From positions 310,001 to 374,000 of the forward strand of contig MU008165.1 of NCBI GenBank assembly GCA_010909165.1: a stretch of DNA of 64,000 nt, in the 5' to 3' direction. The notes below the pieces were generated by a model, which worked only from the letters and a program-made list of their open reading frames with translations, had not been told where the DNA came from and searched no databases. Within the stretch, counting starts at the first letter, position 1. Each line of letters opens with the position of its first letter. Shown piece by piece: positions 2,061-32,609 of the stretch. This DNA is from Anthoceros angustus. Lineage: Eukaryota; Plantae; Anthocerotophyta. A program made the translations under genes and the position numbers.

Positions 2061-2106
2061 TTCATGTCTACTAAAGAACCTATAACCGTCTCATACTTAT
2101 ATCAAA

Positions 2107-4066
2107 CAGCGTCTATGTAGAAAGGGGTTTCTCCTGAAACCCCTTTTGCACACCTGAGACGTCGGACCCTTTTGCACTTGAAAAATCCGCACTATTATCG
2201 CCTTGGTATTTCTCTGCGGACATGTCACCGCAACCTTTTGAATAATTGTTTTGATACACGTTATTTGAGATTGTAGATTGCAAGTACGTGGCAAAAACCT
2301 AAAGTCCCATTCTTGTTCGGCTTTTTCTTTCAAACTAGATACAGAATTCGTGCGCAAACTTATGCGCGCAATTACATCTAAATAGTCTCCAACACATGGC
2401 AATCAAACGTGTAGAGTTTTTAGGGCTTGCTGTAATTCTGGTGCCCAAACTTGTTTGCGCACCAACCTTTCATTGATACCAATCAATCCTAAGACTATAC
2501 TCTCGCTCTGGAAATTTTACAGGACTTTGTTTCTTAGACATTGGGACAATAATATCTTCGTTGACTTGATGCTCTTGATCCGCGTGCAGTGCGAGAATGA
2601 GAATGGCATGGTCTGCACTTGGAGCTGGGCCCACGCCAAACATCTCAAGATTCAAAAGGTGCAAAAGGTTCTCACTACTAGTTCAAAGTTTCAACCACTA
2701 GAAAAAAGATGAGGGCTAAGTAAAGATAAGTTTGGATACTTTTGGCTTTGGCGAAGCCCAAGGTGGAGACCCGACGTATCTTTCTCTTGCTAGTGCATAT
2801 CCACATTAGGGAGATGCACCAAAAAGGTTGAAAACGTCGAAATGAACCTTTTAAAACAATAAAAATATCAAAAAATACCAAAAATTCAAAAAATATCAAA
2901 ATTTTAGGACAAATGTGCGCACTTGCCTCAAAAAATTGGACTTTTTTGGGATTTGTTTGGGGTATTTTAGATTGTTTTCTCTTTTTTTCTTTGGATGAAC
3001 CGTCTGGGAATGCACTAGAAGGCTTCATGTGGGTTCATGCTCTTAGGCCCTTTTTGACCTTGGGTGCGCACACAAGTGCACGCACTTGGGCCTCCTTGCC
3101 CCACAGTGCGCGCCCTGGTGGGTGCACACCTCTGCCCCACAGTGCACGCACTTGTGCAGCCTCGTCTGCTGCCCCGGTGCACGCGCGTGCGTGCACCTAA
3201 ATCCCACAGTGCACTTGTGCAGCACAGGCCCTTGCGCGCTAAGTGTGTGCACTGGCCCCTGCCCCGGTGCACGACTTCAGCGCGCACCTAGGTCCCCTGC
3301 CCTGCGCGCACACAGTGCGCACCTAGGTCCCTGCTCACTGGTGCATGCCCAGCGACCGGGCCCCTTGCCTCGGGCCAGTAGACAAGTGTGTGTGTGCACT
3401 GGCCCCTGCCCCGGTGCACGCACCTGGGCCCCCTTACCCCCTGGTGCACGCACTTGTTCACCCAGCTGGGCCCCCTTGGCATGTTTGATGATAAACCCGC
3501 ACTAGGTCACCGCCGAAAGAGACGGAAACGCTGTAAAGGATAAAAAGAGGATATGGTGTTCTTCGTCGTATTAGGGCATAGGATAGATATATGAGAGCGG
3601 TCTAGACGAACCTCCGCCGATGCCTACTACTTGTTATTTTGTGGAGTTCAGACATCCTCGACTCCAAAGGACATGTTTCCCCATTAAAAGATCGATGCTC
3701 TTTTGCACAATCTGCATGCACAAGTTTGCGCATCGTGTTGTTTAGATGCGCACTTATGCGCTAGGCTCCTCGTATACAAAACATACAAAACCACACAAAT
3801 GCGTAAACTACTGACATGACGTAAATTATGGAACAATGAGGTCACTGCCCTTCATCACACCGAAGAGCCATGAACACGAGTTCTGGGCCAACATGTGTAA
3901 ATGACTCGATAGGAAGTGGTGCCGGAGCCGAGAATGCTTGAAACCGATGTTTAATTTTTTTTCAAAAACCAATAAAAACCAAACCAACTTCATTTTTAGG
4001 CGAAATAGGGTTGGGATTTTTTCCAAAACCCCTTATGAGGAGAAACCCCTTTCTACACAGACGCTG
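2107..4066. mobile_element. Non-autonomous TIR DNA transposon (hAT-like), copy 1
   Basis: ~29-bp terminal inverted repeats: CAGCGTCT(A/G)TGTAGAAAGGGGTTTCTCCT at 2107 and its reverse complement ending at 4066. No transposase ORF. A colinear second copy lies at 52785-54989. CAG- termini are typical of hAT, but no 8-bp TSD is visible. Confidence 0.75.
3062..3470. repeat. Degenerate GC-rich minisatellite (gtgcac/gcgcac/ggcccctgcccc units) inside the TIR element
   Basis: Repeated gtgcacgcac and ggcccctgccccggtgcacg motifs. Homologous to the 36-bp array at 53714-54005. Confidence 0.8.
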
Positions 4067-4177
4067 TTTTCTTTGTTTCTTTCGTCCATTGCTTCAGTTT
4101 TTAATGTGTTAACATTACTACAACAACCATCCGTTTTACAAAAATTGGATAACACAAGTGGAGTGTCGCATAGGTTA

Positions 4178-5133: not shown

Positions 5134-5292
5134 TCTGATTCCAACCTTATAGATGGATCAGGATTTCCTCTGTTTGGCTCAGGTTGCGATATTTCACTGA
5201 TGTTTCTAGAGCCACAGACAGTTGAACCTGCTTACCTCACAAAATTGGCTAGCCCAACCAATTTTGTCTTGTGGAAAGATAATAGGGACTTG
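5134..5292 (+). pseudogene. Inverted duplicated fragment of the auxilin-like gene's large exon
   Basis: Translates as [47 protein letters not shown], versus [47 protein letters not shown] at ~22958-23115 (minus). Confidence 0.85.
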
Positions 5293-6696
5293 GAGCAGGG
5301 TCACACAAGACTGGATCCTTCCGCGAGTGCGAGCAGGACTCCCAATGCCAGTGCAGTGAGGCGGGAGAGGGAGCTCCTCACGGTGGGCGGTTGCGGATTG
5401 TGGAGATGGAGCCACTTAGATCTGGATTGACATCCACTAGTCACACAAGACTGCAATCCCGGCCCTTAAAGCAGGAGGTCCGGAGAAGGAGAAGAGGACA
5501 GCACAGCGGCAGGATGTGGGGATGCGGCTGGATTTAAACGCAGTAGCAGCGGCAGCGGCCTTCCATCTTTTGCTTCACTGCTGGGATGCAGTGGCATGAA
5601 AGCCAACCATGCTTGGTGCGGCAAGGCGATTGCTGCACCTCGTCCTTCATCGTGCATTTGTGTTCTCGGGCGGGATTCGGTGCACAGCGGCTCGGCTGCT
5701 GCTATTTTCAAATGTTTTGGCCATTTCCGAGCACTTGAATGAATCATGGATGTCTCACTTTATCTCCCATGGGGCCTCTGAGTGTTTTTGCTGTTGCACC
5801 GCCCAAATCAGAGAGAATCATCTTGCCAATTCGGCCTCATATCAGAATGGGGCAATCAGAGAGAACTACCCCGCTAATGTGGCCTAACATGAGAATGGGC
5901 CAATCACATGGTGGACGAAGTTCTCTACTGTGATTTCAGATACAAACCACAACAAACATCGAACCTAATGTGGAGTCTCATGGCTTGTGATTTAATCACA
6001 TGACTTCAGAAAGCATAGTCTCCCGTGGAACCTCCAAGTGTTGTTACACCCCCCGCTAAGCAAAGAGTCTAATTATCTCGCCAATCCGGCTTGATGAGAA
6101 TGGCCAATCACAGATATCGAAGATCTCAAGTTCATGTATTGTGATGGAGATCACATGACTCTAGAAAGTAGAACAATCCATTGGCCCATAATGCACTTGA
6201 AAAAAAGTAACCAAGGATATTTTAAATATATAACTAGAATGTATTTTTTACTTAATAGATATATAATAAATATATATATGTTTTTTTAATTAGCAAACAT
6301 TCATCATCTCATTGTCTCACTCTAATTAGGGATACATATCCTATTAGTTAGCGCATATTTTTTTATTAACTACTAAAGTTTTAACTTGCGGTCGCGTACC
6401 CTAATAATTTGCTAAGTTTGACTCCATGATTATTTGGCTCACTAACTTGCTAATATTTATAATCTATTAAATAAAATTAATTGATGTGGTATATGTTTAG
6501 CTTAATTTTCCAATCTTATGATGTAGAAATCAACGAATTGGCGCATTATCTTAATGTTGTTGCATTGACATCCCAACTTTCTCAACAACGAAAGCACCTA
6601 TTTCTTTCACCTATTGCTTCAATTACACAATACTATGTGGCCTTCAAATTAGGACAATGTATTATGTCCCCACTTATAGTACCAATCCTCATAGTG

Positions 6697-8551: not shown

Positions 8552-10974
8552 GGAGACTTTATTAATAAGAAGAGATGGGAAACCCATCTACCTTGAACCG
8601 AGGGGGACAACCCACTAAAGGGCCAAGATCCAGGGGGGCTAGCCCCTACAAATGCCAACCTAGAAGCTACCTACCGCCCCGATTATGTCGTGGTCCAAGA
8701 TGAGGAAAGGCCTACCTACAACTGGTGCTGATGACTCCACGTCTCCAGCGCTCGTTGCCGTCCTGTAAATAGCATTGGCCAGCGCCCTCTGTAGGGCGAT
8801 GCATACCCGCTATCGAAAGAAAGCCACCATCAAGGAAAGAGGGAGACCTACCCCGTTCCGACAACTGTGGTAGGCTTTAGCACAATCCTTAATGTGCCGA
8901 GAAAAATCCTTGCCCATAGTCCCGTGAGTCTCAAAGGCAAGAGAGATGAAGGCGTGGCCGTCCGGCAAAGGTATGTACTTGTATACCTTGGCAGTCACGT
9001 ATCCCTCCGTCGCCCAGCCCGGAGGGTTGATAATGATATGCTCACAAATGGAGTTTCATGTAGGGTCAGTGTTGACTCTCCTAGCCCAAGACCTTTAACG
9101 TGTTTTTCATGTAGCTCACGTCCTAGGGCCTTGGTGAGAACATCTGCTGGATTGTCTTGTGTCGGAACGTATAGTAGTCCAATGGTCCCTACTGCTAACA
9201 GTTCTCTTATGTAGTGGTACTCCACTTCCACGTGTTTTCTTCTAGAGTGAAATACCGGGGTCTTAGCAAGTGCGATAGATCCTTGGTTGTCGGTATGTAT
9301 AATTGTACAGGTTGGGAGCTCGATCCTAAGCTCAAAGAATAGGAGTTTGCACCAAAAAACTTCCTTAGCAGCTACTGTGAGTACCCTGTATTCTGCCTCT
9401 GTGCTGAACAGGCAACGGTAGGTTGCTTTTTGGTGGACCAACAGATAGGCCCACTTGCAACGCATAGCACTATCCAGAGACAGATTTTCTCGTGTCTATA
9501 TCTCCTGCATAGTCGGAGTCTGTGTAGACTTCTAGGTCTAAAGGGCTTCCCATCTCGTAGGATTATTTGATGCCTTTGTTGGCTTTCCCCTTTAGATACC
9601 TAAAGACTCGCTTAACACAACTCCAGTGTTCCTGTCCAGGGTTTTCCAGATATTGAGATAGAACACTCGTTGCGTAAGCTACCTCTGGCCTAGTTCCATG
9701 ACATCTGCAACAGAGATTTTGTCCCCGCGGGTCAAAAATAAATCCGCCCTTAGCGACACTCCATTGCGCAGGGTATATGGACACTCCCTGCATGGAAAAT
9801 AACCGGTCTCCTTGGCAATCAAGAACATGACAACGTGAACGGTATCATGCATAGCAATACGTTGCCCTCCAATTAGACAGCGAGCTAGGTGGGACCCTGA
9901 GTCGTCGAGGGGGGTCCCACAGCTACAGGCTGAGAGAGAACAAGCCAAAGGCTGGACCAAACCCAGACGGAACCTGATCGCAGTAGAAAAAGAAGCTGGT
10001 GCGATTCAGAATGCCTAGATGTAAGGCCGAGCTAGGAGCCAAGAGCCTGCTCCCTTCCTCGGCAAGAGCGGATATGGGCACGAACAGGCCGGGGAATAGT
10101 AGAGTCCAAAAGGATTGCCTGCTGTGCCTACCCATATTGCTTCTCATGGAGAGAGGCATGAAGGTCATATAGCCTTGGAAAAGGGCATGGCCGCCCTAGC
10201 CTCGGAGGAAAGGGTGTCCCTGGCCAACTTAAGGGAAGCCTGCAAAGGGAAGGCCTGCAAAGGGATGGCCCCCTCCTCGACGCCCAAGATGAAGGCCTCC
10301 AAGATGGGAACATCCTGAATTAAGAAACGAGCGGTGAAGACAGGGGTAGAGAGGGCACACCTCCCAAGGAAGGCCGTCGGCACCGAGACCTCCATGGCCA
10401 GCAAACCTGTGCCCCCACAAGCAATAGGAAGAGACGCCTGCCGCTGCGCAAGGCCCCCTGCGGCACATTCGAAGGTCCCCGGCCCAATAATGTCTCCAAA
10501 TGCCTGCATAGTCTGTTAATAGAAAAGCTGGGGAGGGAGTTATCGTCCTGGTGAGGTAACCCGGCTGACGCGCAAAGCAAGACAAAATGATGCCAAATGC
10601 CACATGAGGGTCCCCTAATAGAGATAGGTCACCGACGTGGGCCAAGTCCTCCTTCAAAGCCTCATCCACAAAACCCTGAATAAAGGGTGGAGGTCCCATG
10701 GGGACCCCCAAGACTCAAAGTCCCTTCGAAGGAACAATGTCCCCTAGGGAAATTGAAGAGAGGAGTTATGCTAGACGGGGACCAAACCTTGCACTTAAGA
10801 ATCTTGACCCCCAAACCTAGGTGGGAAAGTTGAGAGGAGAAGAGTGCGAAAGCTTTTTGGCTTTGCCCTCGAGTCCTAAGATATGAGTGTTGTCCGCCAC
10901 GGACAGAAAGAGACACTCTCCGACCGCGTCGGAAGTAACAGCCAAGGCCTTGAAGTGCGCACTGGCAAAGAGGG
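8552..10974 (-). mobile_element. 5'-truncated, degenerate CRE-clade (restriction-like endonuclease) non-LTR retrotransposon, copy 1
   Basis: Frameshifted pieces in order: RT motif PLFASAHFKAL...FLSVADNTHILG, GLGVKILKCKVWSP, LGVPMGPPPFIQGFV...CFARQPGYLTRT, QASLPIACGGTGL, zinc knuckle CSCG-x8-HLARC, RIAMHDTV, RADL...VADV, KVYKY...FISLAFETHG and IALQRALA. The 3'UTR has a hairpin and AATAAA (8558-8563, minus). Confidence 0.8.
9072..9696 (-). mobile_element. Ty1/Copia pol fragment (RT C-terminus + RNase H), no LTRs, nested in the CRE-like element
   Basis: GTRPEVAYATSVLSQYLENPGQEHWSCVKRVFRYLKG, YTDSDYAGDIDTR, STEAEY, IHTDNQGSIALAKTPVFHSRRKHVEVEYHYIRE and QDNPADVLTKAL are canonical Copia RT/RNaseH motifs. 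Confidence 0.9.
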
Positions 10975-11624: not shown

Positions 11625-12342
11625 CACTAGGATTTTGATATGGAGTAACCCTCATAGGACACTAACGCTTGGTGGCCTCGCGCTATGGAGACGAGGGCTG
11701 GAGTAAGTTCTACCCTGGGATTTTGATATGGAGTCACCCTACAGGACACTAACACCTGGTGTTCGTGACAAGCCATCAACATAGGAAATGGGCTAGTGTT
11801 CACGACAAGCCATCAACGTAGGAAACGGGCTAGTGTTCGGGACAAGCCATCAATTTAGGAAACAGGCTAGTGTTCGCGAAAAGCCATCAACGTAGGAAAC
11901 GGGCTAGTGTTTGCGACAAGCCATCAACGTAGGAAACGGGCTAGTGTTCGGGACAAGCCATCAACGTAGGAAACGGGCTAGTGTTCGGGACAAGCTATCA
12001 ACGTAGGAAACGGGCTAGTGTTCGGGACAAGCCATCAACGTAGGAAACGGGCTAGTGTTCAGGACAAGCTATCAATGTAGGAAACGAGCTACTGTTCGCG
12101 GCAAGCCATCAACGTAGGAAACGGGCTAGTGTTCACGACTAGCCATCAACGTAAGAAACGGGCTACTGTTCGCGACAAGCCATCAACGTAGGAAACGGGC
12201 TAGTGTTCACGATAAGCCATCAATGTAAGAGACGGACCAGTGTTCACATGCTCGGAACATCAACCCGCTATATAATTGTGATAAGTGAAAAAGTACCGTA
12301 TAATGAGTAAACAGTCCTTTGCAACAATTGGAGATAGAAGTG
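11625..12342. repeat. Complex host repeat, left part (ggattttgatatggagt..ccct..aggacactaac modules + 37-bp array). It continues at 18415-18842 and 19472-19610.
   Basis: The same ~87-bp modules appear at 11630-11760 and 18660-18842. Sequence reads through seamlessly once the 12343-18414 and 18843-19471 insertions are removed. Confidence 0.75.
11759..12247. repeat. 37-bp tandem array, ~13 copies
   Basis: Unit gtgttcgggacaagccatcaacgtaggaaacgggcta repeated head-to-tail with no spacers. Confidence 0.95.
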
Positions 12343-13451
12343 TGTGGTAGGGAAAACCCTGGGGCGTCCGAGATCCTCCCACTCTAGCGGCCACACTTAT
12401 CCCACTGTCGTTCGTACGTTGGGTTTCGTCCCATGAGACTTGTGGGAGGGTCGAATCCTGAGAAATCACTCGCTACTTGCAGCTACACACTACCTCAGCC
12501 TTCTAAATAAGCAAGGCGCCCTCTACTTTCCCTCTCACAGCAGCTACACCGCCTGCACTGCTCCGAATCTTAACAGTCCTCGACCTATAACGACAACACA
12601 CATTTGCAGGCATGCCTTGGCATCCAGGATTCCTCCACGGGTGCCCAGGGACCCCCTGACCCACACCGCGGTGTCGTCCTTGACACCCAAGCCAGCTCCT
12701 CAGCAGTGGAGCTCCTTCTTCCTCTTTACAGCAGCTGCATCGCCCGCACTACTTCGACAACTCACAAATCCTTCACCTACAACGACATCACACAATTGCA
12801 GGTCATGCCTTAGCAGCAAGGATTCCACCACGTGCGCCCAGGGACCCCCTGACCCGCACCGTAATTTCGTCCTCACTCCTAAGACAAATCTTCTCCACAC
12901 AGGGAGCGCCTTCTTACTGCAGATTTGGGGTTCGTCCCATAGGCTTTGCTTGCGGCCTTCCGTTTTTCTTACACTCTAATCTCTTCCCAACCTTCTCAAC
13001 CAACAATACCTTCTCTTTCTCTACTCATCTATCCTTCCTTCTTCCACAATCTCCTACTCTAACGCCATGACTTGGCTCATTAATCCCAACTCGCCCTTAC
13101 GGCACAACTGCCTGGGGTCCGTTCGAGGTTAACGAGTTCTTCCTTGGGCCGGTTGCTACGTGGTTTGCACCAATCAGCGAGAACCTCCAGGGAGTCTTTC
13201 CCTGTAGTCTACCCTCAAGCCGAAAGTTCCTTGAGCATCGCCACACACTCAAAGCAAAACAATTCACACAGCAACCATTCACAAGGGAAGCAACTGGTAA
13301 GGGTGCCTGCAGAATGCAAGCCCACTGCCCAAGACTGACTGTCACAGACTCTCTACAGACTGCGTTGGCCTACGGTGACGAAATTCACACAAAGCGAAGG
13401 ACTCGGGAGGATGGGAGCGCAAGTCACGATAATTTTACTTCACAAGCTCCC

Positions 13452-13464
13452 TCCTTTTATAGGG
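13452..13464 (-). promoter_or_regulatory. Putative LTR TATA box (CCCTATAAAAGGA)
   Basis: The minus strand reads CCCTATAAAAGGAGGG, a typical plant LTR core promoter context, ~1.1 kb from the element end. Confidence 0.45.
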
Positions 13465-14308
13465 AGGATCCCACGTACTACCTCCCTCTGGCACGCCCTA
13501 CTGGCGCCGCCTCACACCTTATTTTAGTGTATCCTACCGTCAGTCTTTAAGTCCTGACCTCTGGGTCCACCAGTTCATCCTAAGTAAAAGTCTATATCAG
13601 TAATTTTACCTACGTCAGAACTAAGCACTTTTGCAAAAAGCGTCTTCTTATCTAGTCTACACACCACTACTTGACTGCTGGTCATTTATGATTGTCTTCT
13701 CCCAAGGAGAATTCCCTGCGAGCAGTATCATGTCTATGTCACGTAGCTAAATCTAGGGGCTTTCCATGGATTTCCCCTTCCTTCCTATTGGACAGGCGAC
13801 TGCGCGCTGTCCGCTTGGCTCCTCCGCGCTTCTTTTTGCCTCGGGTTCTCCCCCTCTTTTGGCTCCTTCTCCCTTTCGCGGAGTCTGCGCCATCAACCCC
13901 TTCGTCGCTCGTTACGGGCGGCGTCTCTTCGTTTCCTTGCTCTTGCCTGTTGGCGACGCACGTACGGCCTCTTTCTCCTTTCAGGTAAAAGGCACCCTCC
14001 TTGCCCTCTTCTTCTTCACGTATGACAGGGCCTTCGGACCCTGTCTCCTGTCTTGGACCTATGGTGGTAGGTTCCCGACCTACCGAGGTAGGTTGACCAC
14101 CTACCGTGGTAGGGTGGTCACCTTACCTGCAATTTTCTGAGAAAAAGGTCTTCTTGGGTTACAATCTTCTCCGCTCCAGCCTTTGGCCTGATTAGTCCAT
14201 ACCTACCAGGAGCATCTTCGAAGATTGTCTTTTCCTTCGACTGACCTTTCAATTCCTCCGGACCTTCTTAGAGTCCGACTCCTCTCCTGGCTCCGGATCA
14301 TCCCTCCC

Positions 14309-17183
14309 TCACGTGCTAAGGGATTCCTTCACTCCTGCCTCCGCTAGGACGGTCAATGATCCGCCCTTGACGTCCTCCGTCGGCGCTGCCGGTTCCTCCA
14401 TGTGGGCGCCATGTGTAGGGGGCACAGCGCTTACTCCCCCTTTCCCTTTTTCCCTAACCGGGTCTCTTGGACCGGTTGCTTCCCCCGGACCTACGGTCGT
14501 AGGTCCATGTCCTACCGCGGTAGGTTGGCTACCTACCGCGGCGGGATGATCACCTACCGGGGTAGGTTGACCTCCTGCAAGCGTAGGTTGTTCCCCTACC
14601 TTGCTCTCGGCGCCCTCTCCTTCTGCTGGCGCTGGGTTTTCATCTCCTCTTTCCTCCGATCCTTCGGAGTCCATTTCACTTGTCACCTCATCGAAGTCCG
14701 AGGTTCCTGGCTGCACCTGTGACAAAGCCTCCCTGTCATCATCATGAGGCCCAAGCATTCTCCTTTCTGCCAAACGGAGTATCTCATTGTTGGTTTTTAG
14801 AATCCGATTGTGGAGATGTGCTCCTAGACCTTGATATTGCATCTCCAGATCATCCAGTTCGGCTGGCCATTCTCCGTCTTCGTGCCTACCCTTGTAGGCG
14901 TCCCTTGCCATGGTCAGCTCTCCTACTCTCACGTTAAGGACGACATTCTCTTCCTTGGCCCTTGTCAACTCGGTGGTTAATTTAGTTTGAAGGGCATAAT
15001 CTGCCCTGAACCGTCTTTTTCTTACCACCAGCATTCTGTGCACCACCTTCTTGTGATGCTCCTCTTCGCGAGCCCTCTGTTGCTCCAGATCAGCCAATTG
15101 CTGGGCCGATCGTTCCCGTTCCTCTTGCCATGCATTCTTCTCTCTTTCCAGCTTCTGTATTTGGAGGTCTTGCTGAATTAACTCCGTGCTTCTTACCTCC
15201 AAGCTCATCCGGACCCTGCGCAATTCTTCCTCCAAGTCCCGAATCTTGACGGCTTGGGTGGCTAAGACTTGTTCTTGCGCTTCCACCTGTTGAGTTGCCT
15301 TCTCCTCCCTTTCTAGAGCTTCAGATTTTACCTTTCGTTCCTGCTCTAATTGAGCATAGTGGCTCTCAGCCTTCTCCTTCCAAGTGTTGCGCTGGGCGGT
15401 GGCCCTGTGGGCCCTTTCCTCCGTTAGGGACAACTTCCCTTCCATGGCCCTCTCTCGCTGTCGGTGTTCTACAAGCTCCTTGTAGCGCTCTTCCAGCTCT
15501 TGAACCAACTTTGCCGCCTTCTCATCGGACTCCATGGCTTCAAGCTGCCATCGCCTATCCGCTTGGCTGTCCTTTTGTTTTCGGGCTCTAGCAGCCCGCA
15601 TTTCCTCCTGATTCGCTAGGAGGGAGTTGGCCACTTCCCTGGCCTTTCTTACATCCACCCTGCTAAGGACTTCGCAGATATTTATCATTTCTTCGAGAGG
15701 TCCCAATTCCGACCTCTCCAATCCGTCGCCGAGGGTTTCCAGTGCCCTCGCACGCGATGGTTCAGCCTCCTGGCTGATGTGCTCCGTGGTAGGTCCTTGC
15801 GCGGATGCCCCCTCGCCCCTACCTACGGGTGACTGCTGCCTTGTTGCAGCTTTCGGCGTTCCGCGCCGAAGCTCCTTCTCTTCCCTGGCCGCTGGAGGTG
15901 GCCTACCTCCCCCGGTAGGTTGCCTTTTTACCGGCGTAGGCAGCGTAGGCGCCTCCACGGGCCTTCGGCCTACCGGCGTAGGTGATCTACCTACCTCCGT
16001 AGGTTGTCCACCTACTGCCGTAGGTTGCCTACCTACCGTAGTAGGTAGCATGGGTGCCTCTCCTGCTGGCACAAAGGAAATGGTGGGCGCACCCCACACC
16101 CTTGGTAATGGTCCTACCCTGGTAGGCTGCTCACCTACCACGGTAGGTGCATCCAAATACACCACCATTTGGCCTTCATCGGCCTGAATCTCCGGCGTTG
16201 CCGAAGGCAATGTCTCTTCTTCTGGCACGGCTGTCACTTCTTTTTCGGCCCTTGGTCTTGCCGCACTGCTGGAGGATGCTGGTCCTCCCATGGTCCTCCT
16301 CAAAGCAAACGGTACTGGCCTCTCTAGGCTTGGTTGGAGATGGATAATTTCGAAAGGATGCCAAGAGTCTTCTAGCTCCTTGCTCGTCAACAGCCCCTCT
16401 GTCTCCCATAAATGCACAAGGTAAGTGCTAAGGTAACAAGGCCTTGCACTTCCTTCATCTGCTGCGTTAGGCTTAAGGAGCTTCTCCCTATGATGAATGT
16501 AAGCCTCATACATAATAGTTCCCCAATCCGGTTTTGCTCCTCCCACAATCTTCCATAGGAAATGAAGGAAATTGGTGCTGAAATAGGACGTGCGTTGATA
16601 GTTCACCAATCCCAAGACGATCTTGGCAAAGAGCCTCCACTTGAGCTCTTTGATACTCTCCGTTTTCCAGCCATTCTTCGTCTTGGCCTTCATTCCACCT
16701 TCCATGAGGTCTAATACTTCTTGGGGGATATCCACTGTGAGGGACCTTTTTCCCCCATTAGTCCGCTCAATAAGGGCTACACCTGAGTTCTCCTCATCCG
16801 ACCTCCCATAAACTTGGCGAATGCTTGATCGCCCAACATGAGGATCGGGCCCTAGCATTTCTTTCCGGCAGGGCGGCAAGAGCAGTCTCCGATTGATGGA
16901 GGTTGATGTAACACTCCTCAATCAGCTCCAAATTTGTGTAGGCCCACTGGCGGCCATACACCCATCCTAATTGGATGTTCGGCTCCTCTGCCCATGGCCT
17001 GAAATCCACCAAGTCTCGGGGGTTGAGTTGCCCCGCGAAACAGGTGAACTGCGGCATTACCAAGCCGCGGCCTTTTTGAGATGGCCCTTCGGCGACTGGC
17101 CTTTTGCCTCTCCTTGCACCTCCGCCTGAGGCTGAACCCCTCGCAGCTGTTTCCCTTTCTCTGGTTCTGGAACCCCGTGCCAT
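14309..17183 (-). CDS. Retroelement accessory-type protein (~958 codons, one frameshift near 16860): N-terminal globular domain, Pro-rich 7-aa repeats, long coiled coil, acidic tail
   Basis: ATG at 17183 (MARGSRTRE...). The frame runs to ...LAALPE, then shifts into the 870-aa ORF (KEMLGPDP...). Motif IVGGAKPDWGTIM...PCYLSTYLVHLWETEGLLT, VGRQPTA-type repeats, ~300 aa E/R/Q/K-rich coiled coil. Intronless. Confidence 0.7.
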
Positions 17184-18842
17184 ACTGGAAACCGTTGACG
17201 TTAGGATGGAAAACAAGCAAGTTGTGGACGTTTTTCCTGCCACGCCTGCGCTTTGGTTTTCTTCTCCGCTCTTGGCTTCTCGACTTCGGCGCTCCAACCG
17301 CGGAGACTGGTGGCGCCTCCAAGCTTGCCTTCTTCTTTCTTTCTTTGCCGTTCTTCTTTTCCCCGCTCGAGGCCCGCTCCTGCTCTCTTCTTTGACACCG
17401 CTGCTCGCTTGGTTCCTCAACTTCCAGCCCCACCCGCTCGCTTATCTCATATCGATACATCGAAGACTTCTAAGTTTGCGGCGGTGGCGTTGTTTTGCTC
17501 CTTCACTCGGTCACTTGGCCTTGGAGCGTAATACTCTGCATGCGTCAGATCATAGGGGAAGGAGAGAGAGTATGTACAGCCTCGTGCCTGGAGATTCCGC
17601 CACTCTCGGATGCGTGCCACCTGGCTAGTTTTTATCCATAGATCTCCTGCATTACTTCCTAAAAGAATTACTTCTACTTTCAAAACACTAAATCCTGTCT
17701 TGGCCGGGAACGCGGGGTTCTGTCAATCTTGCTTGGCTGATTCGGGCCGAACATATATAGTCCGTTTGTCCTTGGCCGTTGGTGTCTGGAAAAATATTAT
17801 CGACGTTCTTCCTTGGACGTCGGTCTTTTGTCATCCTAATTTGGCCAGATAATTTCCTTGTCCTTGATCCACGGTAATCTGCCAGTTTCGCTTTGTCCTC
17901 GGCCGTCGACGTTTTCGCGCGTTTCCCTGTCCTGATCCGGCTATAAATGTTCTCGCCATTAATTGAGTCGTTTGCCCGACGCCGTCTCCCAGCCTGGCGG
18001 TCCTACGTCCGGACCCGTCCTTGGTACTTCTGACTCTGTCCGTCCTGATTCCCAACTTCTTCACGACCCGCGTTGTACTTGGGCCTTGGTTTCAGCATCC
18101 TGCTCGCGTGCAGTTTACCATCGTAGGTTGCTTCTCTACGGTGGCAGGTTGCTCACCTACCGGGGTAGGTTGGCAGCTTACCGCGGTAGGTTGACAACCT
18201 ACAGGGTCGTTGTCAGCCTACTCTTCTACTCCAAAACCTGGTGCGTCCTAGTTTCTTTTGCCTATTCTGCTTACCTAAACTTTTTGCCTTCCTTAGAGCC
18301 TCAGCGTCAGGAACATCAAAAAGGTTCAGATTTTGTCCAACGCTGTTAGTTTGAGCCAAAGTTGTTCGCCTTTTCCTCGAAAAAAAACGGTGACCCAAAC
18401 TTTTACGTTCCACAAAGTGTTTGCGACAAGCCATCATTGTAGGAGACGGTGTTCCCATGCTCGAAACATCAACCCGCTATATAATGAGTAAATAGTCCTC
18501 CGCAACAATTGGAGATAGAAGTTTCCGTCTACGGATGTTGCCGATGGTCCAACCTATTATTAGGTACGATAGACCAACCTGTTATTAGGATGGTCCGATA
18601 TTGGGGCGACGGACAGAGGGGGCTTCAAACTCCGGCTGGAGTAAGTTCTACACTAGAGTAAGTCCTACACTAGGGATTTTGATATGGAGCCACCCTCGCA
18701 GGACACTAACACTTGGTGGCCCCGCGCTGTGGAGACGAGGGCTGGAGTAAGTCGTACTCTGGGATTTTGATATGGAGTAACCTTGTAGAACACTAACACC
18801 GGGTGGCCCCACGCTGGAGAAGATTGAGGGCTGGAGTAGCCC

Positions 18843-19471
18843 GGCTAGCCGTAAAAATCAGGTGGCCAGGTGCGGGGCCCGCTGACTCCCTCGTGCAGAG
18901 CGGTCATGATCATGTAGTCCATACCCTCTCAATCTGCCATATGAATATGTATATACAGCCACTGCAACTCAGATCACGTCGGACCCAACAAAGGCAACCA
19001 GTTCGCCCAGGACCCAACAAGGGCAACCCGGGTGACGCCAAACCCAACAAGGGACCCAAGGGACCCAACAAGGGCAACTCGGGTGACGTTTAGACACAGG
19101 GTGTAAAAGTGTAAAACATGTGTTTAACAGTCCGACACACAAAATGACGGATTGAGAACGGGACCTCCTTGGTGTAGAGGGTTGATGCGACCACGAACCA
19201 AATAGGTTTCTTTATTTTTGTCTTTTGGTTTGTATATTATTACACTTGTCTTGTCGAATTGTAAGTAAGACAAGTGTAATAATATACAAACCAAAAGACA
19301 AAAATGCCGCTCAAACGAGCCCGTGTCCAATGGAGCCGGTGGCCGGTGAATTGTTGGACTGTATACACGTCTCTACGTCATGGATGTTAATGGCAATGTG
19401 AGAGACATGGACCATAAAGTACACCAATGTCAGAGGCCCCGCACCTGGCCACCTGATTATTACGGCTAAAC
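18843..19471. mobile_element. 629-bp Mutator-like MITE
   Basis: TIR core TAGCCGTAA(A/T)AATCAGGTGGCCAGGTGCGGGGCC (33/34 identical). G...C termini. 10-bp direct repeat GGAGTAGCCC at 18833-18842 and 19472-19481. Non-coding, with internal ggacccaacaagggcaac repeats. Confidence 0.85.
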
Positions 19472-20237
19472 GGAGTAGCCCTGTAGGACACTAACAACCC
19501 GCAGTTGGAGTAGTCCTGTAGGACACTAACAACCCGTGGTTGGAGTAGCCCTGTAGGACACTAACAACCCGCGGCCCCACAGTACAAGAACGGCCCCGCA
19601 GTACAAGAATGAGGGCATAATGTTTATGATGCATTGCTTTGGTATGTACTCTAATACGATGAGCATCCTTTTTCCAGAAATCTGAAAACACTAGTGAAGT
19701 ATCGCAGAAATGAAGTGAATTAAGGGCACCAAAATTGAATAATTATTGGCCAGAACTATTTCTGGCAACAGTTTCCCCTTCCGATCGGAAGGACAACCAT
19801 CAAATTCTTGTGGGAGAGAATATCCAAAATACGACACCTGTAGTGTATCATGCTTCAGAAGAGACCTTCCGAGCGAGAAGTTGTTGAGAGTGAGAGGTAA
19901 AATTTGGCACTTGTAGTCTATCATGCAACTACGTTTCAGACGACGGCGTATGAACCTCTTACAACCACAAATCTACTTCATACGCAAGCAACTTACATCC
20001 CAATTGGGACTTCTACACAGGCGCCAGGGCCCTCTGAAACTCACATCCAAATGGGAGGGTGTCAAAATATGGCGTCGCTCCATACCTCCTGAGTACGAGG
20101 GGGCCACATGCAGCGGCTTCCATCATATATGGCAAACGGGACAATCTAAGAGAGAGATGATCATGGACAAGATGAAGGTAGATGTCACATGCTCTAAAGA
20201 AAGCTTGGGCACCGAGAAGAAATAATTGTTGCAACCT

Positions 20238-23200
20238 TCAGAAAAGCTCTTCCGAATTGAACTTGTTCCACGCTTCCTGTGATTTCAGACTGCATTTAGC
20301 AAGCAGAACCTACAAGTGCAAGAAACTGGTTGACTTAAGGATTAGTACACACGTACCTTTAGAATGTCAAAAACTTTCTCCGCAATGTATTTCTGCTGTA
20401 CTGTTGCCCCCTTCTGCTGCACTTTGTCCGGGTGCACACAAAGAGTTGCTTTCCTGTATGCCTTCTTCACAGCTATTGCACTGATGATGTCAGTCAGGGA
20501 TATAGGCTGCCAACCACATTCAGGCCACAATACCTGACACAGCAGACACTGAGGGTCAGAGAACCAACACACTTTTCCATTTGAATGTCATGAGCAGGAC
20601 TAGGAGGTTCAAACTAGTTCACAGTGGAAACCGAGAGGCATTACATATTGTAGAGTAGAAAGCAGTGCTCGCAGATTCCCTTCCTTTCCCGCAGCCCAAC
20701 GTTTTATTTCCGTATCCAGCACTTCTCCAGCCCTCTGCAACGGGAAACCAAATAGCATAATGCGATAGCAGAGGATAACACGATATTCTCCTGGGGTAGT
20801 CTACACATGAAGTGGCAAGGCAGGGATAGTCTTACATGCTTCTCAGCTTGTTCCCACTGCTGATCCAAATCTCGTTGATTTTTATCTGCAAGTGCCTTCG
20901 CCTGCAACAGGGGAAAGAGGAAGTGTCATTCAGCACTGGAGGTGTTAGAAGTGACAAAGAATGCAAGGATCATCCAAGACAGACAAAGGGCCTTAGCACA
21001 GCACCGCAAGAGAGACATACCGCTCTCTCCAAAGTTCGTTGATGGCGCTCCCACCTTGCTTTTCGCCGGTCGGGAGTCTCTCCCTCAATTTCTTGGAATA
21101 CATCCTGAGATGCAGGAGCTGTCCCAGAGACGAATCTCAGCAGACAGCGACTTGCAGCTTCCATCCGAACCCCCACAAGAGACTTGACCTCATCCTTGCC
21201 AATTTTGGTTTATTCAAAGCCACCTACAACAAAGAGGAACTCACCAAAAAGTGATGTCCAGTCATCAGCAATATTTGTTGACGACGAGACTTTACGCACA
21301 GGAGGCATTGAAGAGGGTCCCCTCCTGTCACTACCAAAAGTTTGACTTGATCGAGTATCAGCTGCATGTTCCTGCAAAAGGTCCCAAACAAATAAGAGTT
21401 AGTAACAATACCTGAGGACATGTCCAACCAGATGGCTGCCACGTCTGCCCTCATACCGAATTCTGTGGCCTCTGCCGTGGCTCACTGTTTGCTCGATTAC
21501 CAAACAGTCTATCCCAGTCAGTTTCGCTCCGGCGTTGCTGGTCCCTTGCTCTCTCAGCAGCATTTCGCTCTGCCTTCTCACGGGCTTCAGCAGCAGCGCT
21601 TTCAGCTCTAGCTCGAGACTCAGCTGCTGCCCTCCTGGCCTCAGCAGTAGCTCTCTCTCGTGCTTCAGCTGTTGCTCGTTCAACCGCGGCCCTCTCCACT
21701 CTCTCTCTGGCCTCATTAGCTGCTCTTTCCCTGGCTTCTGCTGCAGCCCTCTCCACAGCAACTCTTTCAGCTCTCTCTCTTGCCTCGTTAGCAGCTCTTT
21801 CCCGGGCTTCAGCAGCTGCCCTTTCTACGGCAGCTCTTTCAGCTCTTTCCCTCGCTTCATTGGCAGCTCTTTCCCGGGCTTCTGCTGCAGCCCTTTCAAC
21901 CGCAGCTCTTTCAGCTCTCTCTCTGGCCTCATTGGCTGCTCTTTCACGGGCTTCAGCTGCAGCCCTCTCAAAAGCAGCTCTTTCAGCCCTTTCTTTTGCT
22001 TCAACCGCTGCTCTTTCACGAGCTTCCGCTGCAGCCCTCTCTACAGCTGCTCTTTCTGCAGCCCTGTCTTTCTCACGTTCTCTTTCTCTTTCCTTCAAGC
22101 GCTCTCTTCTTTGCCTCTCCCTTTCCCTCTCCTCCCTGGCTTCCCTCTCTTTCTCTTCTCTCTCTCTTGCCTCTCTCAGTTTCTGCTCTCTCGCTTCTCT
22201 TTCCTCTCTCTCTCTTGCAATGGCCCTTGCTATCATTGCCTCTCTTTGCTTCTCTTCCCTGTCTTTCTCCCTTGCTTCCTTAGCTAGTCGGAACTTCACA
22301 TCTCCTCTCTCTGAAGCATCCTTCATGGGTGGAGATCCAGCACCTTCGCGATCACCGTGCCCTTCCTCCCCTTGCAAATTTGGGGCTCCAGATTTGTGTA
22401 AAACTCCAGCCACAAACTCCTCTAGCCCATCTATACCCCTTGCAGCAGCTTCCTTCATTACATCCTCGGCAGTACCTGGTGCCCAAGGTGGAGAGGCAGC
22501 CTGCTGGCGCACTTGCACAGGAGGAGCTTGCCATGGAGACTCACTATTGAACTCCGCCCCATCATTGTCAAACACTTCTTCAAACGAAAATGCTTCCTTT
22601 TCATTTCTAAGTTGTGGTGCTTGCCGGGACGGCGGGGGCACTGTTGAGGGTGTTGTGACGAGCTTGACTTCCTCAACAGTCAACCAGGTCTCTTCAGGAA
22701 CAGGTTCCACTCTCTCTTTCTCCGATGGTATTGAGGGGGGGCTTGCAGATGCCCCAAAGAAGGCAAATCCAGACTCATCCTTCATGCTGGAGTTTGTAGT
22801 TGAACTCCCTGTATCCTTTTGACGGTCCTTCGCTGGGCGTGATGTCCTCAGGAGATAAGAGGCTTCAATTGGCTCAGTGTCAGATACTGAAGCAGATTCC
22901 ACACTTGATCCAAATAAAGGAAACCCAGATCCTTCCCGGAGACTGGCTTCTGTAGCCAAGTCCCCAGTATCCTTCCGCCAGACATTCTTGGCTGGGCGTG
23001 CTGATTTTGTGAAGTAGGCAGGTTCGACTGTCTCTGGCTCTGGAAACACCGGTGAGGTATCGCCACCTGAGCCAAACAGAGGAAATCCAGATCCATCCTT
23101 AAGGCTGGAATCAGATGCCAGCCCTGCATTATCCTTCCGTCGCCCTTCCTTTATAGAGCGTGATGAAGGTGGAAAATAGGAATCATATGTTGGAGTAAAT

Positions 23201-24684
23201 CCATCAATAACATCAGCTTCAATACTTGAACCTGCACCATCAGTGACAGTCTCTGACTGGCCTCCCATAATGTCACTCCCCAGTGGCACAGAAGCGGAAG
23301 TTTGCTGCATGATGGAGATAATGGGGTCCACAAACCCACCAGAAACTTCAGCAGGACCAGTAGAGGAGATGGAGGGTTGTGGTTCAGCATTCTGGGAGGG
23401 CTTCGAGTCTGTAGACCAACTGCACACGTCAGCCACAAGTAATGAGATTCAGAAAAAGCACCGTTCCATCGTGTAGATTGTCTCAGATTCCAAAACATTT
23501 CTCAAGAAGAGCATGGGACAACGCTGCTTTCTACACACTACAAAAAAACTGTCCACAGACAAACCGAACGTTCAGAAAACCAAAATATCAGACCAGGCAC
23601 CAGCTGCAGTTGAACTTTCTTGAAACCCTCAGTCTGTGGAGCACAATGGACTTAACAATAAAGCAGCACAGTGAAGTACGCTAAATGGACCTCGCAGGAG
23701 AACAGGTCTTGTCAAACCCAGCTCAGAGGCTCCGAAGAAATTGGAATTCACAACCCCAAGATCACCAGTTTCGGATTAGAATTTGAAGCTGACAGGCTAG
23801 TTCAGCGACTAGGAACGATCACATGAAAATTGAATGCGATGGCGTCAGGTCTGACAACAGCAACTAAGCTAAATGGACAGGAGATAGCAGGATATCCAGG
23901 GCCCGCCGGTGACAAAGACAGGCAGCAAGACATACCGCAGCTTCGAGGACTCCACGGAGCTAATCCCTGACAGAAGATCGTCAAAACCCCTGTCAGCCTC
24001 CAACGGAGCAGAAGAACGAACGGGACCCGATCTGTTGGATGCAGGTGCAGGTTTGGGCTTGCGGTCTGTTGCCGTCGAGTATCCTCCTAGTAAATCCTCG
24101 AACTGTAAGGTGGAAGCAGCTGCCGAGCCTCCACCTCCACCTCCACCTGCACCTCCACCTCCACTTCCACTAAACACATCATCGAACACTGCCGAAGTGT
24201 TTCTGGTACCAGGCACCCCTCCGAAGATGTCGTCATCGTACACAGGAGTATCGAAAACAGGCAAATTGACGCTTTTGGACATGCCGGACTGCGGCTTGGT
24301 AGACACCCTAAAGATATCGTCGTGACTGCCATACTTGGGAGACGAGTACTTGGGAGGTCCCCCAAACACATCATCGTACCCGCTGCCTGACGCGAGCCCA
24401 AACGGATCGTCAAGATTGGTGCGAGTAGGAGCTCTGACATTGCCATTACTGCCCGCCCCAAACATATCCTCCCCAAACTCATCCAAGCTCGGCTCCAGCA
24501 CGGATCCCCTCCCATTGCCTCCATTCCTGCTGGCTCTGCCCGTGGAGCCCTCCCTCCAGCTGCTGTTGCCGCCGTTCTCCCCCCCGATCCCCAGGCCCAG
24601 GCCCCTGGAGCCCGCCATCGGGGCCGACTTCCCCTGCGGCTTCAATCCATAGTCCCGCTGCAGTATGTTGGCAAAATCCTCCAT
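20238..24684 (-). CDS. AUXI1: Auxilin-like (auxilin-related 1/2 type) J-domain clathrin-uncoating co-chaperone, multi-exon
   Basis: N-terminus [24 protein letters not shown]; DDIF/DDVF/DPF/DLL motifs; ER/AA coiled coil. Exons encode [86 protein letters not shown]...[15 protein letters not shown], and [12 protein letters not shown]-stop at 20238. GT-AG introns. One small exon between 23408 and 23936 is unresolved. Confidence 0.93.
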
Positions 24685-26129
24685 GCTGTCCCTCCAGATC
24701 GGATCAGATCGAGCGCATCACCAGCTCCAGAGCCCTGGAACCTGCGCCGGCTCGCCTCCGCTCCTGACGGGTGGGTGGGGGAGGCCAAACCCCGGCGTCA
24801 TTGCCAGCCCCCTGCCCTGGCCATGCCGATCGAGAGAGGCCAGATCCGATGCAGCAGTAGGGGATTCTCGATGTCAAAGATGAGACCGCATGAAGGCGAG
24901 CGCTGGTAGCGTGGTGGATGTGTGCGGGATCATCCCCATCACACTCTCCGTGAGTTCAATCCGGTCAGTCCTGGTCGCTGTGCGAACGCGAACCAGGTTT
25001 TGGGCCTTCCCTCCTCTTTTAGCTACCGGACAAAATCACCTTCTACTCCTCATGCTCGTGTGTACCCAGTTATTGCGATCTACTATACATCCACATATGG
25101 AAGACGGGGTCGACTCGTATCCCACACTCTACGATACCGCGTGAAACGAGAAACGACCGTTGTTCACGAGGCTCTAAAAAAACCGAGTGACTTATATGCC
25201 ACTTTCGTATTTTCCGATTAGTATGTGTGTGACCTGAATTTGTCAAACGGTTTAGGCATTGGATTTGAGTGGATAAATCAATGTCATAAGTCCTTATATT
25301 ATTATTTAAATCAAGTTAAGTTTTATTTATATATCTAATATCTCGCACTGGAGAACTCACTCTAGAGAGTTTGGTGCACCCATCCACGCGGAAAACAAAA
25401 TAAATTGTAGAAGAAGAAGAAGAATATATTATAGTGCACTTGGACGGAATTTTTCTGTCATGGGACATGGTACTTAACAACTTGTACCATGGTGTGCCCA
25501 AGCTACTTGCACCAAGGGCATCCACTCCCTTTAGGCACCCTTCTAAGAAAGAAGCTTAATAGCGGTGTTCTTATAAATGTGTGTCCATTTGGCCTAAGCC
25601 ACTTGTAATAGTGGGACATCGGTCTACTAATTCGAGATAATGTCTGTTTCCATACGATTAGAAATATTTGACAAATGTCTGGTATACTATGAGAGAACTT
25701 GCTTTAACTCTTAGTAGAGAAAAGACTTGATATGTGGGCCTGCTGGGCTAGTATTGGATAATACAGTTGCCATATTCCAATATATGTTGTGTTGTGTACG
25801 ACTTACGAATATGATCATAGTCGCCTTTCATAGTCGCCTTGCATTGTTACTAATTGCTAGCCATGGTGAGGGTTTCATTGATGTCCAAGTGCAGAGGATC
25901 ATAGAGTGAGCATTTCAGCATAGGGATACGGTCACAAGGATTGAAGCACTTACAATTGAGGCTCTAGGTTAATAGAAAGGATTAACTATTCCAAGCCTTA
26001 ATCTTGCAAGATTACATAACTATAAGGATTCCTATCAGGTATCAATTATACTAGTTCTAGGGCCCACACCTTTTCAAAAATTATATTATTTTTCGCTTTT
26101 ACTAATTTTTCAAGTTTTGATTATTACTT

Positions 26130-27600
26130 GTCGAGAACTCAAAAAGTTATTAAACTCGCCTTTACTCGCGATTCCCGCCCGGGAGGCGCCAAGGCCAGAG
26201 AGCTCGAGGCTCGAGCCCGGGAGTTCGACACACTGTGCATATATGGCCACCAGGGAAGTTCCCAGAAGTTCCCTGTGAGAGCAGCTGCCTGCCCGCCTGT
26301 AAGGCACCCGTGATTGCACAGGCCTTGAGAAGGCAAGAAAATGTGATGTGGTTACCTACAATCAGAGCATCCTGCTCCATTGGCCATACAGAACAAGCGC
26401 CTCTTGCCTGAGGCCATGATTTGGATATCCAGCTATCAGGGCATTCTGTCACCACAGCCTCTGAGGCCGAGGTGTCAAAACCGGACGTGCATCTTGCAGT
26501 TCGCCACCCTTTGCATACATGTCCACCAGGAAAGTACCCACAAGTATGTTCAGTAGTTGTCCACATTCTCTAAGCTGAGAGTGCAGCTGCCTGCCCAGTA
26601 ATTGCACAGGCCTTGAGGAGGCAAGCAAAAATAACATGGTTACCCACAATCAGGCCCTCCTGCTCCATTTGTGCACACAGAACAAGGCCCACTTGGCCCA
26701 GGCCATGATTTGCATACCCAGATAGCAGGGGATTCCACGTCCCCACATCCTATGTGTCCAAGCTGTCGAAAACCCTGCATGATCTTCCAGTTCGCCACAT
26801 TTTACGTACATGTCCACCAGGCAGCTGCCATCACTGAAGTTAGGAGGAATGCCACTCTGCAACACATCACTATGCACTTTTCTGCCAGATTCCGAGTCCG
26901 CAACGGATGCACAAGCTTCAAGGACTGCTACACAGACGAGAGGATTTGCCTTCTCAGCTGAGCGGAGATTATGGGAAACCACAAAAAGGCATCTGGTTTG
27001 CCCATCCTGTTGAACACATCCATGGCCTCCTGTAGCCTACCTCGACTTGCATACATGCGTAAGACACGGTTTCCCACGGATGCATTTGACTCGAACCCAA
27101 GTTTGAGAGTGAGATGATGAACTCGCCGTGCCACACCCGCATCCTTCCTTGTCTGCACATAGTTTAAGCACTCTACAGAACAGAAGGTAAGAAATAGGGA
27201 CAGAGATTCCAGGGCTCCAACGGGCTCAGTAAGCTTCCCCTGCTGACATAGCGTGTTCACTATTGCAGCTGTTACAGCGCTGAAGGAAAGTCACCATTCC
27301 CAATCTGCATATCCAAAGAAACGAGCAGGCTGCTCATCCACCCAAGCTAGCCTGAATGTGTTGTCTAACTAGAGGACCTCGCCAGCGGGCCTCCTCGGTG
27401 TGCTGATTTCCTTACAGTGCTGCACCTGGAGGCCTAGATGTTTGCCACCGCACTGACTCCCTAAGGTGATTTGAGCGGGAGCCGCTGGTAGCATCCCTGC
27501 ACACCCACCAATCTTGTCCGATCCACAAGGGATCTGGTTGCCATACTGTGGACATCTTACAGGCACACTGTCGGAGGATGAGACATATGGCTTGGTCATG
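26130..27600 (-). pseudogene. PLS-class PPR protein pseudogene, copy 1
   Basis: ESNASVGNRVLRMYASRGRLQEAMDVFNRMGKPDAFLW, VAVLEAC...GSCLVDMYVKCGELED, LVDMYAKGGELQDAR and ITFSCLLKAC, with multiple frameshifts and stops. Confidence 0.88.
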
Positions 27601-27714
27601 TGGAATGGGTGCAGAAAACTGCTGGTGAATTCACCCAAAGGTGAGGAAAAAAATTGCGTATACGATAGGCTGCTAAAGAATCTTCAAGCACGTCGTGCGC
27701 CCGGCAAAACAAGC

Positions 27715-30700: not shown

Positions 30701-32115
30701 CTGTAGTTGAAATTCGGGACGAAGTCCATTACACGGCTGCAAAACCCCAAACCGGGCATGAGCAGCCAGAAGTACTAATGGCCATGAGGTGAAGAAGAAA
30801 ACAAAGCAGGGAATGGTCCGAGCTGAAGTCACCTGAGTCCCGAGGTCCCAGTATTGTTGATCTCGGCAAAGAAAAGAAAGGCATAAACTTGAGGAGAGGT
30901 GTTGTTGTAGACCTCCAGAGTGACGGAGTAGTTGAGAAGATTGGGATCCGTGATGGCTGACTGCATGACAATGGGGGGAGGGTGGTCTGCCTGATAGTTC
31001 CCATCGTAGACAATCTGGGTAGGAGAGTGAGGATACCCAGGAGTAAAAATGCTCGTGTAAGTATCACCAGCGCTCCTTGCCAAGGGCGGCCATATCCGAT
31101 CAAAATTATCTTGAGGATACCTGCATTACGCAAACAAAGACTCCACGTCATGCCAGGGCCCATGAATTGAGGTGCACATTGGTCGGACCTTCATAGACAG
31201 AGACAGACAGATATCCAACCTGTACGTGGTCACCTGCTCCCCAAAGTTGCGGCGGATGAGCAGGGGCATGATGTTGGTCTCCGCCGTCATTGTGGCGATA
31301 TACGCGTCGCGATTGATGGGCCTGAGCTCCAGGGTGTTGATGAAGGGGTCGCTGCTGTCGGTGCGGATCAAGCAGACGCTGATGTGGGGCCTGGTAGTGA
31401 TGAGCAGGACCTCGTACGTGGAGGACGTATTGGGAGTGGTGTCAATGGTGACGTGCGTCCAGAACGTCTCCTCCACAGCAAGCTGCCGCCATAGCACCAT
31501 GCATATCACACACACCGGCCTGTCCAGAAACCAGAAATGCAGGGGAACCCAAAGCCGAATTCAGGGAAACGGAGGCAGCGGTGCCAGTACCTCGAAGTTG
31601 ATCCCGGATGCGGGCACCGACGTAGTGTAGCCCCCGAAGTAGAACCAGGCTCGCACCAGGTACTGCATGTTGAGTAAGGCGGGGATGTCGTAGCAGTTCT
31701 TGGTGGGCGATGATGCCGCAGGGAAGTACCGGAGCGTGGTGAGATCCGACACAACGGCATCTCCGGTGGACGCGGCCACGCCCGTGGAGATGAGGCGTGC
31801 GTCGCTGTGGAACGTGAGATTCGTGTGGGGATTCAGGTACGCGGATCCCACGGGCGCGCCGCAGTCGATGTTGATGAATCCTGCACACGCGCATTCCGGC
31901 ATCCAGGTGCTGGATATCTAATTCGGAGGCAGATTTGCAGGCATCAGCTGCTGCTGCTGCTGCGGCTGCAGCGCGCACTCACCTGTGCTGATCTGGGCAT
32001 TTGCAATGCGGTGCAGACTGTGCGGCAGAGAGATCCACACAGCGCATAGCAGAAAAATCCTCCAGATTCCAGCGCGGGATTCCATCGCGGGGAGCTGGGA
32101 GACGGCAATCGCCAT
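27715..32115 (-). CDS. Malectin-like domain LRR receptor-like kinase (LRR-I type), copy 1; DFR kinase; apparent frameshifts (possible pseudogene or sequencing error)
   Basis: ~15 exons: signal peptide, [50 protein letters not shown], 3 LRRs, SPPP stalk, [50 protein letters not shown]. Homopolymer deletions at ~28425, ~29246 and ~29277. Confidence 0.88.
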
Positions 32116-32542: not shown

Positions 32543-32609
32543 AAGGCAGCCTGAGCTAAGTACATATCTGCAACTTAATCCGGCAACTTGTTCAGTATGT
32601 TATCTACCA

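Follow-up and report, generated by a model that had tools for sequence, protein, structure and literature searches.

A 6,072-bp TG...CA unit of Anthoceros angustus, plausibly a solo long terminal repeat holding a broken accessory gene

In a stretch of 64,000 nucleotides from Anthoceros angustus (Anthocerotophyta; NCBI GenBank assembly GCA_010909165.1, contig MU008165.1, positions 310,001 to 374,000 of the forward strand), here called the window and numbered from its first letter, we describe an inserted unit of 6,072 bp (12343-18414) with TG...CA ends and a long coding region. Both the insertion and its coding region are genuine, and the gene is broken in the present sequence. We read the unit, to which no strand is assigned, as a probable solo long terminal repeat (LTR), in either orientation, of a large Ty3-type retrotransposon of the Tat/Ogre kind, the LTR holding an accessory gene that would have a promoter of its own. 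To this reading as a whole we give a probability of about one half; the solo-LTR interpretation, resting on one copy, is plausible.

The unit begins with TGTGG and closes with CCACA, and a perfect 5-bp target-site duplication, AAGTG, stands on the plus strand on both sides of it (12338-12342 and 18415-18419), flanking this one single unit. According to the passages available from one study, most LTR elements make duplications of 5 bp (PMC6839031). The outermost bases form an imperfect terminal inverted repeat (left arm 12343-12363, plus strand; right arm 18394-18414, minus strand) that pairs at 15 of 21 positions, with p=1.7e-4 against 200,000 random TG..CA pairs of the window and p=6.6e-4 by a length-free score. 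Neither end is repeated within the unit on either strand, the terminal 60-200 bp giving local scores of 18-27 where shuffles had means of 19-23 and maxima of 22-32. Against the rest of the window the same segments scored only 24-27, and the terminal 200 bp matched the reverse strand at shuffle level, the inverted match being limited to 21 bp at 71%. The paired inverted ends, the AAGTG duplication and the non-recurring ends together show that the insertion is real and that both ends belong together, and they support one insertion of the integrase type, in which the two ends are paired and co-adapted. A sequence-only reading of this DNA had named the termini, the duplication and the lack of internal repetition, and we confirm all three.

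That reading had also placed the insertion in a host repeat, which we found to be the case. The right flank agrees in 26 of 30 positions with a 37-bp host unit, whose array ends at 12245, left of the insertion, and both sides of the insertion have a copy of a ~110-bp host segment (12191-12342 and 18415-18523). The insertion lies exactly at the junction of this host duplication, and the 5-bp duplication spans the junction. A long target duplication, which we considered, would leave one base over at each end. Within the 64-kb window there is no direct pair of the unit around gag-pol, and Rfam and tRNA searches gave 0 matches each.

Paired ends of this kind could also belong to a non-autonomous DNA element of the Ginger2/TDD or GingerRoot type, moved by an integrase-like transposase and carrying a passenger gene between 21-bp imperfect inverted ends. 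The significance of the inverted ends is in its favour, as are outward TATA boxes at both ends (see below), which leave no single clear polarity; moreover, the passages available report 5-bp duplications for TDD-4 and TDD-5 and LTR-like termini for Ginger elements (PMC2836005). Ginger1, Ginger2/TDD and GingerRoot resemble the unit in their TG...CA-type ends, inverted termini and size. They differ from it, as far as these passages go, in their integrase-like transposase, in mostly 4- or 6-bp duplications and in inverted repeats much longer than 21 bp at 71%, namely 40-270 bp in Ginger1 and 50-180 bp in Ginger2 (PMC2836005) and 100-150 bp, with 6-bp duplications, in GingerRoot (PMC6839031). No transposase remnant is found in the unit, and LTRs, too, can have short inverted ends, of 10 bp in the passages on Retrosat2 (PMC3485330). 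We regard an origin as such a DNA element as quite improbable.

The coding region lies on the minus strand. Its larger part is a frame of 870 codons from stop to stop (14309-16921; first Met at 16858), far beyond chance when compared with 200 Markov resamples of the unit (mean 198, maximum 551). In this frame the remainder of a globular region is followed by a Pro/Gly/Ser/Thr-rich linker, then by a coiled-coil-like, charged region and finally by an acidic tail. The basic N-terminus and the start of the globular region are encoded in a second frame, of 129 codons from an ATG at 17183 (16794-17183). From this ATG to the stop at 14309 there are 2,875 nt, one base over 958 codons, so that the intact gene of ~958 codons proposed by the sequence-only reading has to be given up: a one-base break splits it into 129 and 870 codons. 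The break falls between codons 87 and 128, in the overlap of both frames (16794-16921), and the codon-bias signal is too weak to position it. As to a programmed frameshift, nowhere in the overlap do four identical bases stand in a row, and two Ty heptamers that were looked for are absent from it. The break may be an assembly error or, alternatively, a real inactivation of this copy. An assembly error is conceivable because receptor-kinase gene copies in the window carry private gaps of 1-2 bases. In an alignment of four copies (~4 kb each), in which private gaps alone were counted, we found 8 of them (4, 2, 2 and 0), each within a short homopolymer or dinucleotide run, and decay of the copies is another possible cause.

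To the left of the gene, a stop-free frame of 127 codons with no start Met (13739-14122, minus strand) duplicates in its first part the C-terminal repeat region of the long open reading frame (ORF; tblastn, 61% over 33 aa) and includes a cluster of 21-bp repeats at 14055-14132. On the other side of the gene, a candidate splice-acceptor-like stretch can be read from the sequence at 17185-17204 on the minus strand, with CTAAC and then CAG as in the acceptor consensus, ending two bases before the ATG at 17183.

The protein was described from a read-through of both frames with an X at the break. The predicted product has basic residues 1-45, a globular-type region (46-290), the Pro/Gly/Ser/Thr-rich linker, a charged region (491-815) and the acidic tail, with basic clusters at residues 24 and 721. 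It has no predicted transmembrane segment, the highest 19-residue hydropathy being 0.72. By analogy with the coiled-coil accessory proteins of Retand elements, its most likely role would be that of a regulator or scaffold of the element in the nucleus, rather than that of a membrane protein like Env. Residues 46-290 may resemble Transposase_32- or ATHILA-type accessory ORFs from Ty3 elements of mosses and liverworts, a likeness to which Pfam gave no support.

The absence of a recognisable gag, protease, reverse transcriptase, integrase or transposase, stated in the sequence-only reading, holds: neither Pfam at E<=10 nor a motif scan found a remnant of any of them in the unit, which has no CCHC, HHCC, YxDD or protease motif. 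All 6 unit frames tested gave 0 Pfam families at E<=0.1, and four pieces including the read-through gave 0 at E<=10, with no match to Transposase_28, PMD or ATHILA. The missing Pfam extra-ORF domain is a weak test because, in the passages available, CDD domains are matched by just 21.4% of the extra ORFs known (PMC6317226). In NCBIfam, a weak match to an SMC coiled coil (18 bits vs a cut-off of 567) was the only family signal.

Searches for relatives were likewise blank. With phmmer, a 184-residue piece lacking the part before the frame break found 0 matches at E<=0.001 over 1.84 billion representatives. Word-seeded protein searches returned 0 of 1,236 candidates at E<=0.001 for residues 20-230 of the long frame and 0 of 241 at E<=1 for read-through residues 40-290 against shorter proteins; these blanks carry little weight because a host receptor-kinase fragment was missed too (0 of 734). 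Two PDB sequence matches (E 0.15 and 0.16) were at chance level and were set aside. Single-sequence structure models reached a predicted local distance difference test score (pLDDT) of 38.1 and 44.4, and Foldseek with these low-confidence models gave no match at E<=0.001. The best hit of a wide structure search (Z 6.4, root-mean-square deviation 4.4, 110 aligned) fell in the range of common arrangements and was not retained, 0 of 48,161 chains having Z>=8. None of 417 metagenome stretches and not the 1 viral stretch could be confirmed as a related locus, and the repeat pattern had 0 matches in viral contigs. Ten metagenome loci with an 18-nt terminal pattern were dismissed as chance, none of them matching over more than 23 nt or encoding a relative.

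Three TATA boxes of the form CTATAWAWR occur in the 3.2 kb of non-coding unit sequence, vs 0.28 expected (P=0.003), where the pattern was picked after the boxes had been seen and the expectation comes from 5 occurrences in the other 58 kb of the window. The box CTATAAAAG (13454-13462, minus strand) points to the left end, 1.1 kb away, and is a candidate LTR promoter if the element reads minus; CTATAAATG (17941-17949, plus strand) points to the right end, 0.47 kb away, and is the candidate if the element reads plus. The third box, CTATATATG (17752-17760, minus strand), lies 577 bp upstream of the ATG at 17183 and would be the natural promoter of the gene. Since the boxes at 13462 and 17941 face opposite ends, the polarity of the LTR can go either way, and the odds are about even as to which of them is nearest the U5 end. 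The minus-strand TATA that the sequence-only reading had put near ~13458 is present, at 13462. The ~5-kb U3 with a sense gene that it had derived from this box depends on one of three equally good boxes, and the plus-strand box at 17941 together with a purine tract at 17554 favours the opposite orientation, with the gene antisense. No clear poly(A) signal was found in the unit, and a scan of the unit for primer-binding sites with a short list of motifs gave scattered short matches only.

The purine tract is 17 nt long (17554-17570, plus strand) and is followed by two bases and then a TG at 17573; there are 3 tracts of that type in both strands of the window. On the plus strand it resembles a polypurine tract, and on the minus strand it may be a pyrimidine stretch in the gene leader. 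The sequence from 17573 to 18414 is an 842-bp TG...CA stretch with the TATA box 17941 inside, and by analogy with Retand, tract and stretch look like a normal (older) 3' end with an antisense ORF upstream. The inner TG pairs with the right end at only 9 of 21 positions, vs 15 of 21 for the outer ends, and is therefore at most a relic. It may be speculated that the LTR of a plant Ty3 family grew to 6 kb by absorbing the whole 3' accessory region. Plus-strand priming would then have shifted upstream by ~5 kb, the former purine tract and 842-bp LTR would still be visible at 17554-18414, and each solo LTR would leave in the host genome a self-promoted gene of ~960 codons of a new coiled-coil family. 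We hold this scenario to be unlikely.

The tract and the 842-bp stretch at the right end would also fit a shorter solo LTR into which the gene segment was later inserted or captured in a one-off event, or a composite of two outward LTR ends (minus at 12343, plus at 18414), and each end indeed has its own outward TATA box and a CCACA terminus. Around the ORF, however, nested duplications and inverted repeats do not exceed chance: 5 of 4,784 TG..CA pairs have a 5-bp duplication, vs 5.6 expected, and 0 pairs have both a duplication and an inverted repeat of 8 bp. From a composite alone, a perfect 5-bp duplication would not be expected (~1 in 1,000), and a 21-bp repeat is common to the ORF and both non-coding sides. 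Capture and composite alike appear very doubtful to us.

This 21-bp repeat, a semi-palindromic sequence of 7 codons, forms four clusters on the minus strand, all in the same codon register. Two of them are in the ORF, at 14487-14586 and, within the linker, at 15969-16149, and two are outside, at 14055-14132 and at 18123-18206, the latter 208-291 bp from the right end. Its presence in the ORF and on both non-coding sides indicates that these parts share a history. The two outer clusters are direct repeats, 76-79% alike, that bound the gene segment, and the unit minus this segment measures 2,001 bp, an ordinary LTR size. A further repeat, a non-coding tandem duplication of ~190 bp (12537-12723 and 12728-12918, 77% identical), lies near the left end (12537-12918, plus strand).

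These direct clusters make a double deletion easier than the sequence-only reading had assumed. In an ordinary Tat-like element with ~2-kb LTRs, a deletion between the 21-bp cluster of the first LTR and an internal cluster would have removed gag-pol, and a second one between an internal cluster and that of the other LTR would have removed the polypurine tract and the start of that LTR. Such a derivative would keep the true ends and the target duplication and would show no recurring end. The clusters at 18123-18206 and 14055-14132 around the gene segment and the remainder of 2,001 bp agree with it, and in the passages available extra ORFs and tandem repeats are normally internal (PMC7264820, PMC11963269). 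On the other hand, two deletions via short repeats of 75-80% identity are required and, after the first, the outcome to be expected from ~290 bp of perfect homology between the LTRs would be an ordinary solo LTR. Moreover, the sequence beside the 14055 cluster copies the C-terminal region of the ORF itself, which argues for a local duplication and not for an LTR junction. We consider a double deletion possible, and rather unlikely.

If the unit is a solo LTR, a full element with two 6-kb LTRs would have been integrated here by its integrase, and recombination between both LTRs would have deleted gag-pol, so that a single LTR stayed behind. Transcription of the gene would start from the box at 17760, and that of the element from whichever box is nearest the U5 end, 13462 (minus) or 17941 (plus). 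We infer the parent element, its recombination, the activity of these promoters and the role of the protein; the present copy would be dead through the frameshift, or else the assembly is in error there. Several points weigh against this solo-LTR interpretation. Only a single copy is at hand, and no full-length element, primer-binding site, polypurine tract outside the unit or reverse transcriptase is linked to it. The gene carries a frame break, the direct 21-bp clusters with their 2,001-bp remainder fit deletion or capture equally, and the succession of purine tract, TG, TATA and CA at 17554-18414 fits a 3' LTR of normal, short length that has an antisense ORF on its upstream side. The tentative assignment to Tat/Ogre is based on layout, with no Pfam extra-ORF family at E<=10, and the additional ORFs of plant elements have been placed in the internal region (PMC7264820). 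Of the solo-LTR-like unit in the sequence-only reading, the integrase-type insertion is borne out and a solo LTR is the most likely class, in which the 6 kb, known from this single copy, would be one LTR.

An LTR of 6 kb has a precedent in Ogre, and a gene within a plant LTR would be unusual. In the passages available, Ogre LTRs measure 1.9-6.5 kb (PMC6431247), non-chromovirus LTRs reach ~5 kb (PMC6317226), and Retrosat2 has an LTR of >3.2 kb, 429 solo LTRs in rice and an internal ORF0 upstream of gag-pol (PMC3485330). The unit is like Ogre and Retrosat2 solo LTRs in size, TG...CA ends, short inverted ends and 5-bp duplication; it differs in that their extra ORFs are internal, these passages describing no gene in an LTR. 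The extra ORFs of the Tat clade (Retand, Grande, RIRE2, Ogre, Athila) resemble ours, as far as they are described in the passages at hand, in being long non-enzyme ORFs with an SMC-like coiled coil, a candidate promoter of their own and short tandem repeats (PMC7264820, PMC11963269, PMC6317226). Theirs lie between the LTRs, whereas the ORF of the unit lies between paired TG/CA ends with no gag-pol.

Retand comes close in its dimensions, with LTRs of 315-1,194 bp, a pol-to-3'LTR region of 2,933-6,566 bp, antisense ORFs near tandem repeats and 11 Smc-like domains among 104 antisense ORFs in the passages available (PMC11963269). The 5.2 kb of the unit left of the purine tract are within the 2.9-6.6 kb of this region, and the 842 bp are within the LTR range; Retand is, however, reported in these passages from flowering plants only. 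The mouse mammary tumour virus (MMTV) gene sag, according to the passages seen, lies with its entire ORF in U3 and is expressed from P2, a second promoter within U3 (PMC9412291). Layout alone is common to it and the unit; MMTV is a vertebrate retrovirus, the product of sag is a superantigen, and no sequence relation is proposed. Elements of the Tat type are present in every main group of land plants, and the passages available from these sources are silent on ORFs in LTRs (PMC13468544, PMC10508981, PMC11656987). A full-text literature search turned up no description of a plant LTR that contains a gene, most subscription papers and supplements (e.g. the element tables of PMC6317226) being outside its reach.

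The window, with a GC content near 49% and short introns, contains further features. At least four copies of a malectin-like receptor kinase gene stand in tandem (27300-39600, 45460-51700 and 59070-64000), with a unit of ~6.5 kb and 93-96% likeness, and the private gaps mentioned above, in three of the copies, reflect decay or assembly error. Degenerate gene pieces between the kinase copies (26274-27618 and 32626-34030) are presumably PPR-like, judging from their translations. A host gene on the minus strand (21451-24717), which we take from its translation to be auxilin-like, has a 72-bp tandem repeat coding for an Ala/Glu/Arg-rich helix. A 160-bp piece of its coding region (22956-23115) recurs inverted, 17.7 kb apart and 83% identical, at 5134-5293, perhaps as a captured gene fragment. 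A 633-bp piece resembling a miniature inverted-repeat transposable element (18841-19473) has inverted ends of 39 bp (92%) and, at its centre, a hairpin of 39 bp without mismatches (19214-19305). On the minus strand, a frame of 166 codons (8995-9495) may represent the RNase H end of a Ty1/copia polyprotein, although it matched no Pfam family at E<=10. Two diverged repeat copies of ~2 kb (2105-4062 and 52783-54989) have a tandem core rich in GC between inverted ends of 32 bp (2104-2135, 4038-4069). Tandem duplications of ~1.6 kb (91%, with a 32-bp satellite) and ~1.5 kb (96%) lie at 40814-44070 and 55068-58066, respectively.

The formation of a solo LTR is usually seen as stripping a retrotransposon of its coding capacity. 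Should the unit be a double-deletion relic, it would be nothing more than a dead fragment of the ordinary kind, and its accessory ORF one that belongs to no known class. If our solo-LTR reading is true, a gene of ~3 kb in the LTR would mean that complete cassettes are scattered in the genome, two with each full element and one with each solo LTR. Such units would escape LTR finders that have length limits, or would be wrongly annotated as genes of the host. From the inner purine tract one could see how LTRs grow, and the family would offer a clean system for the role of the extra ORFs of plant Ty3 elements.

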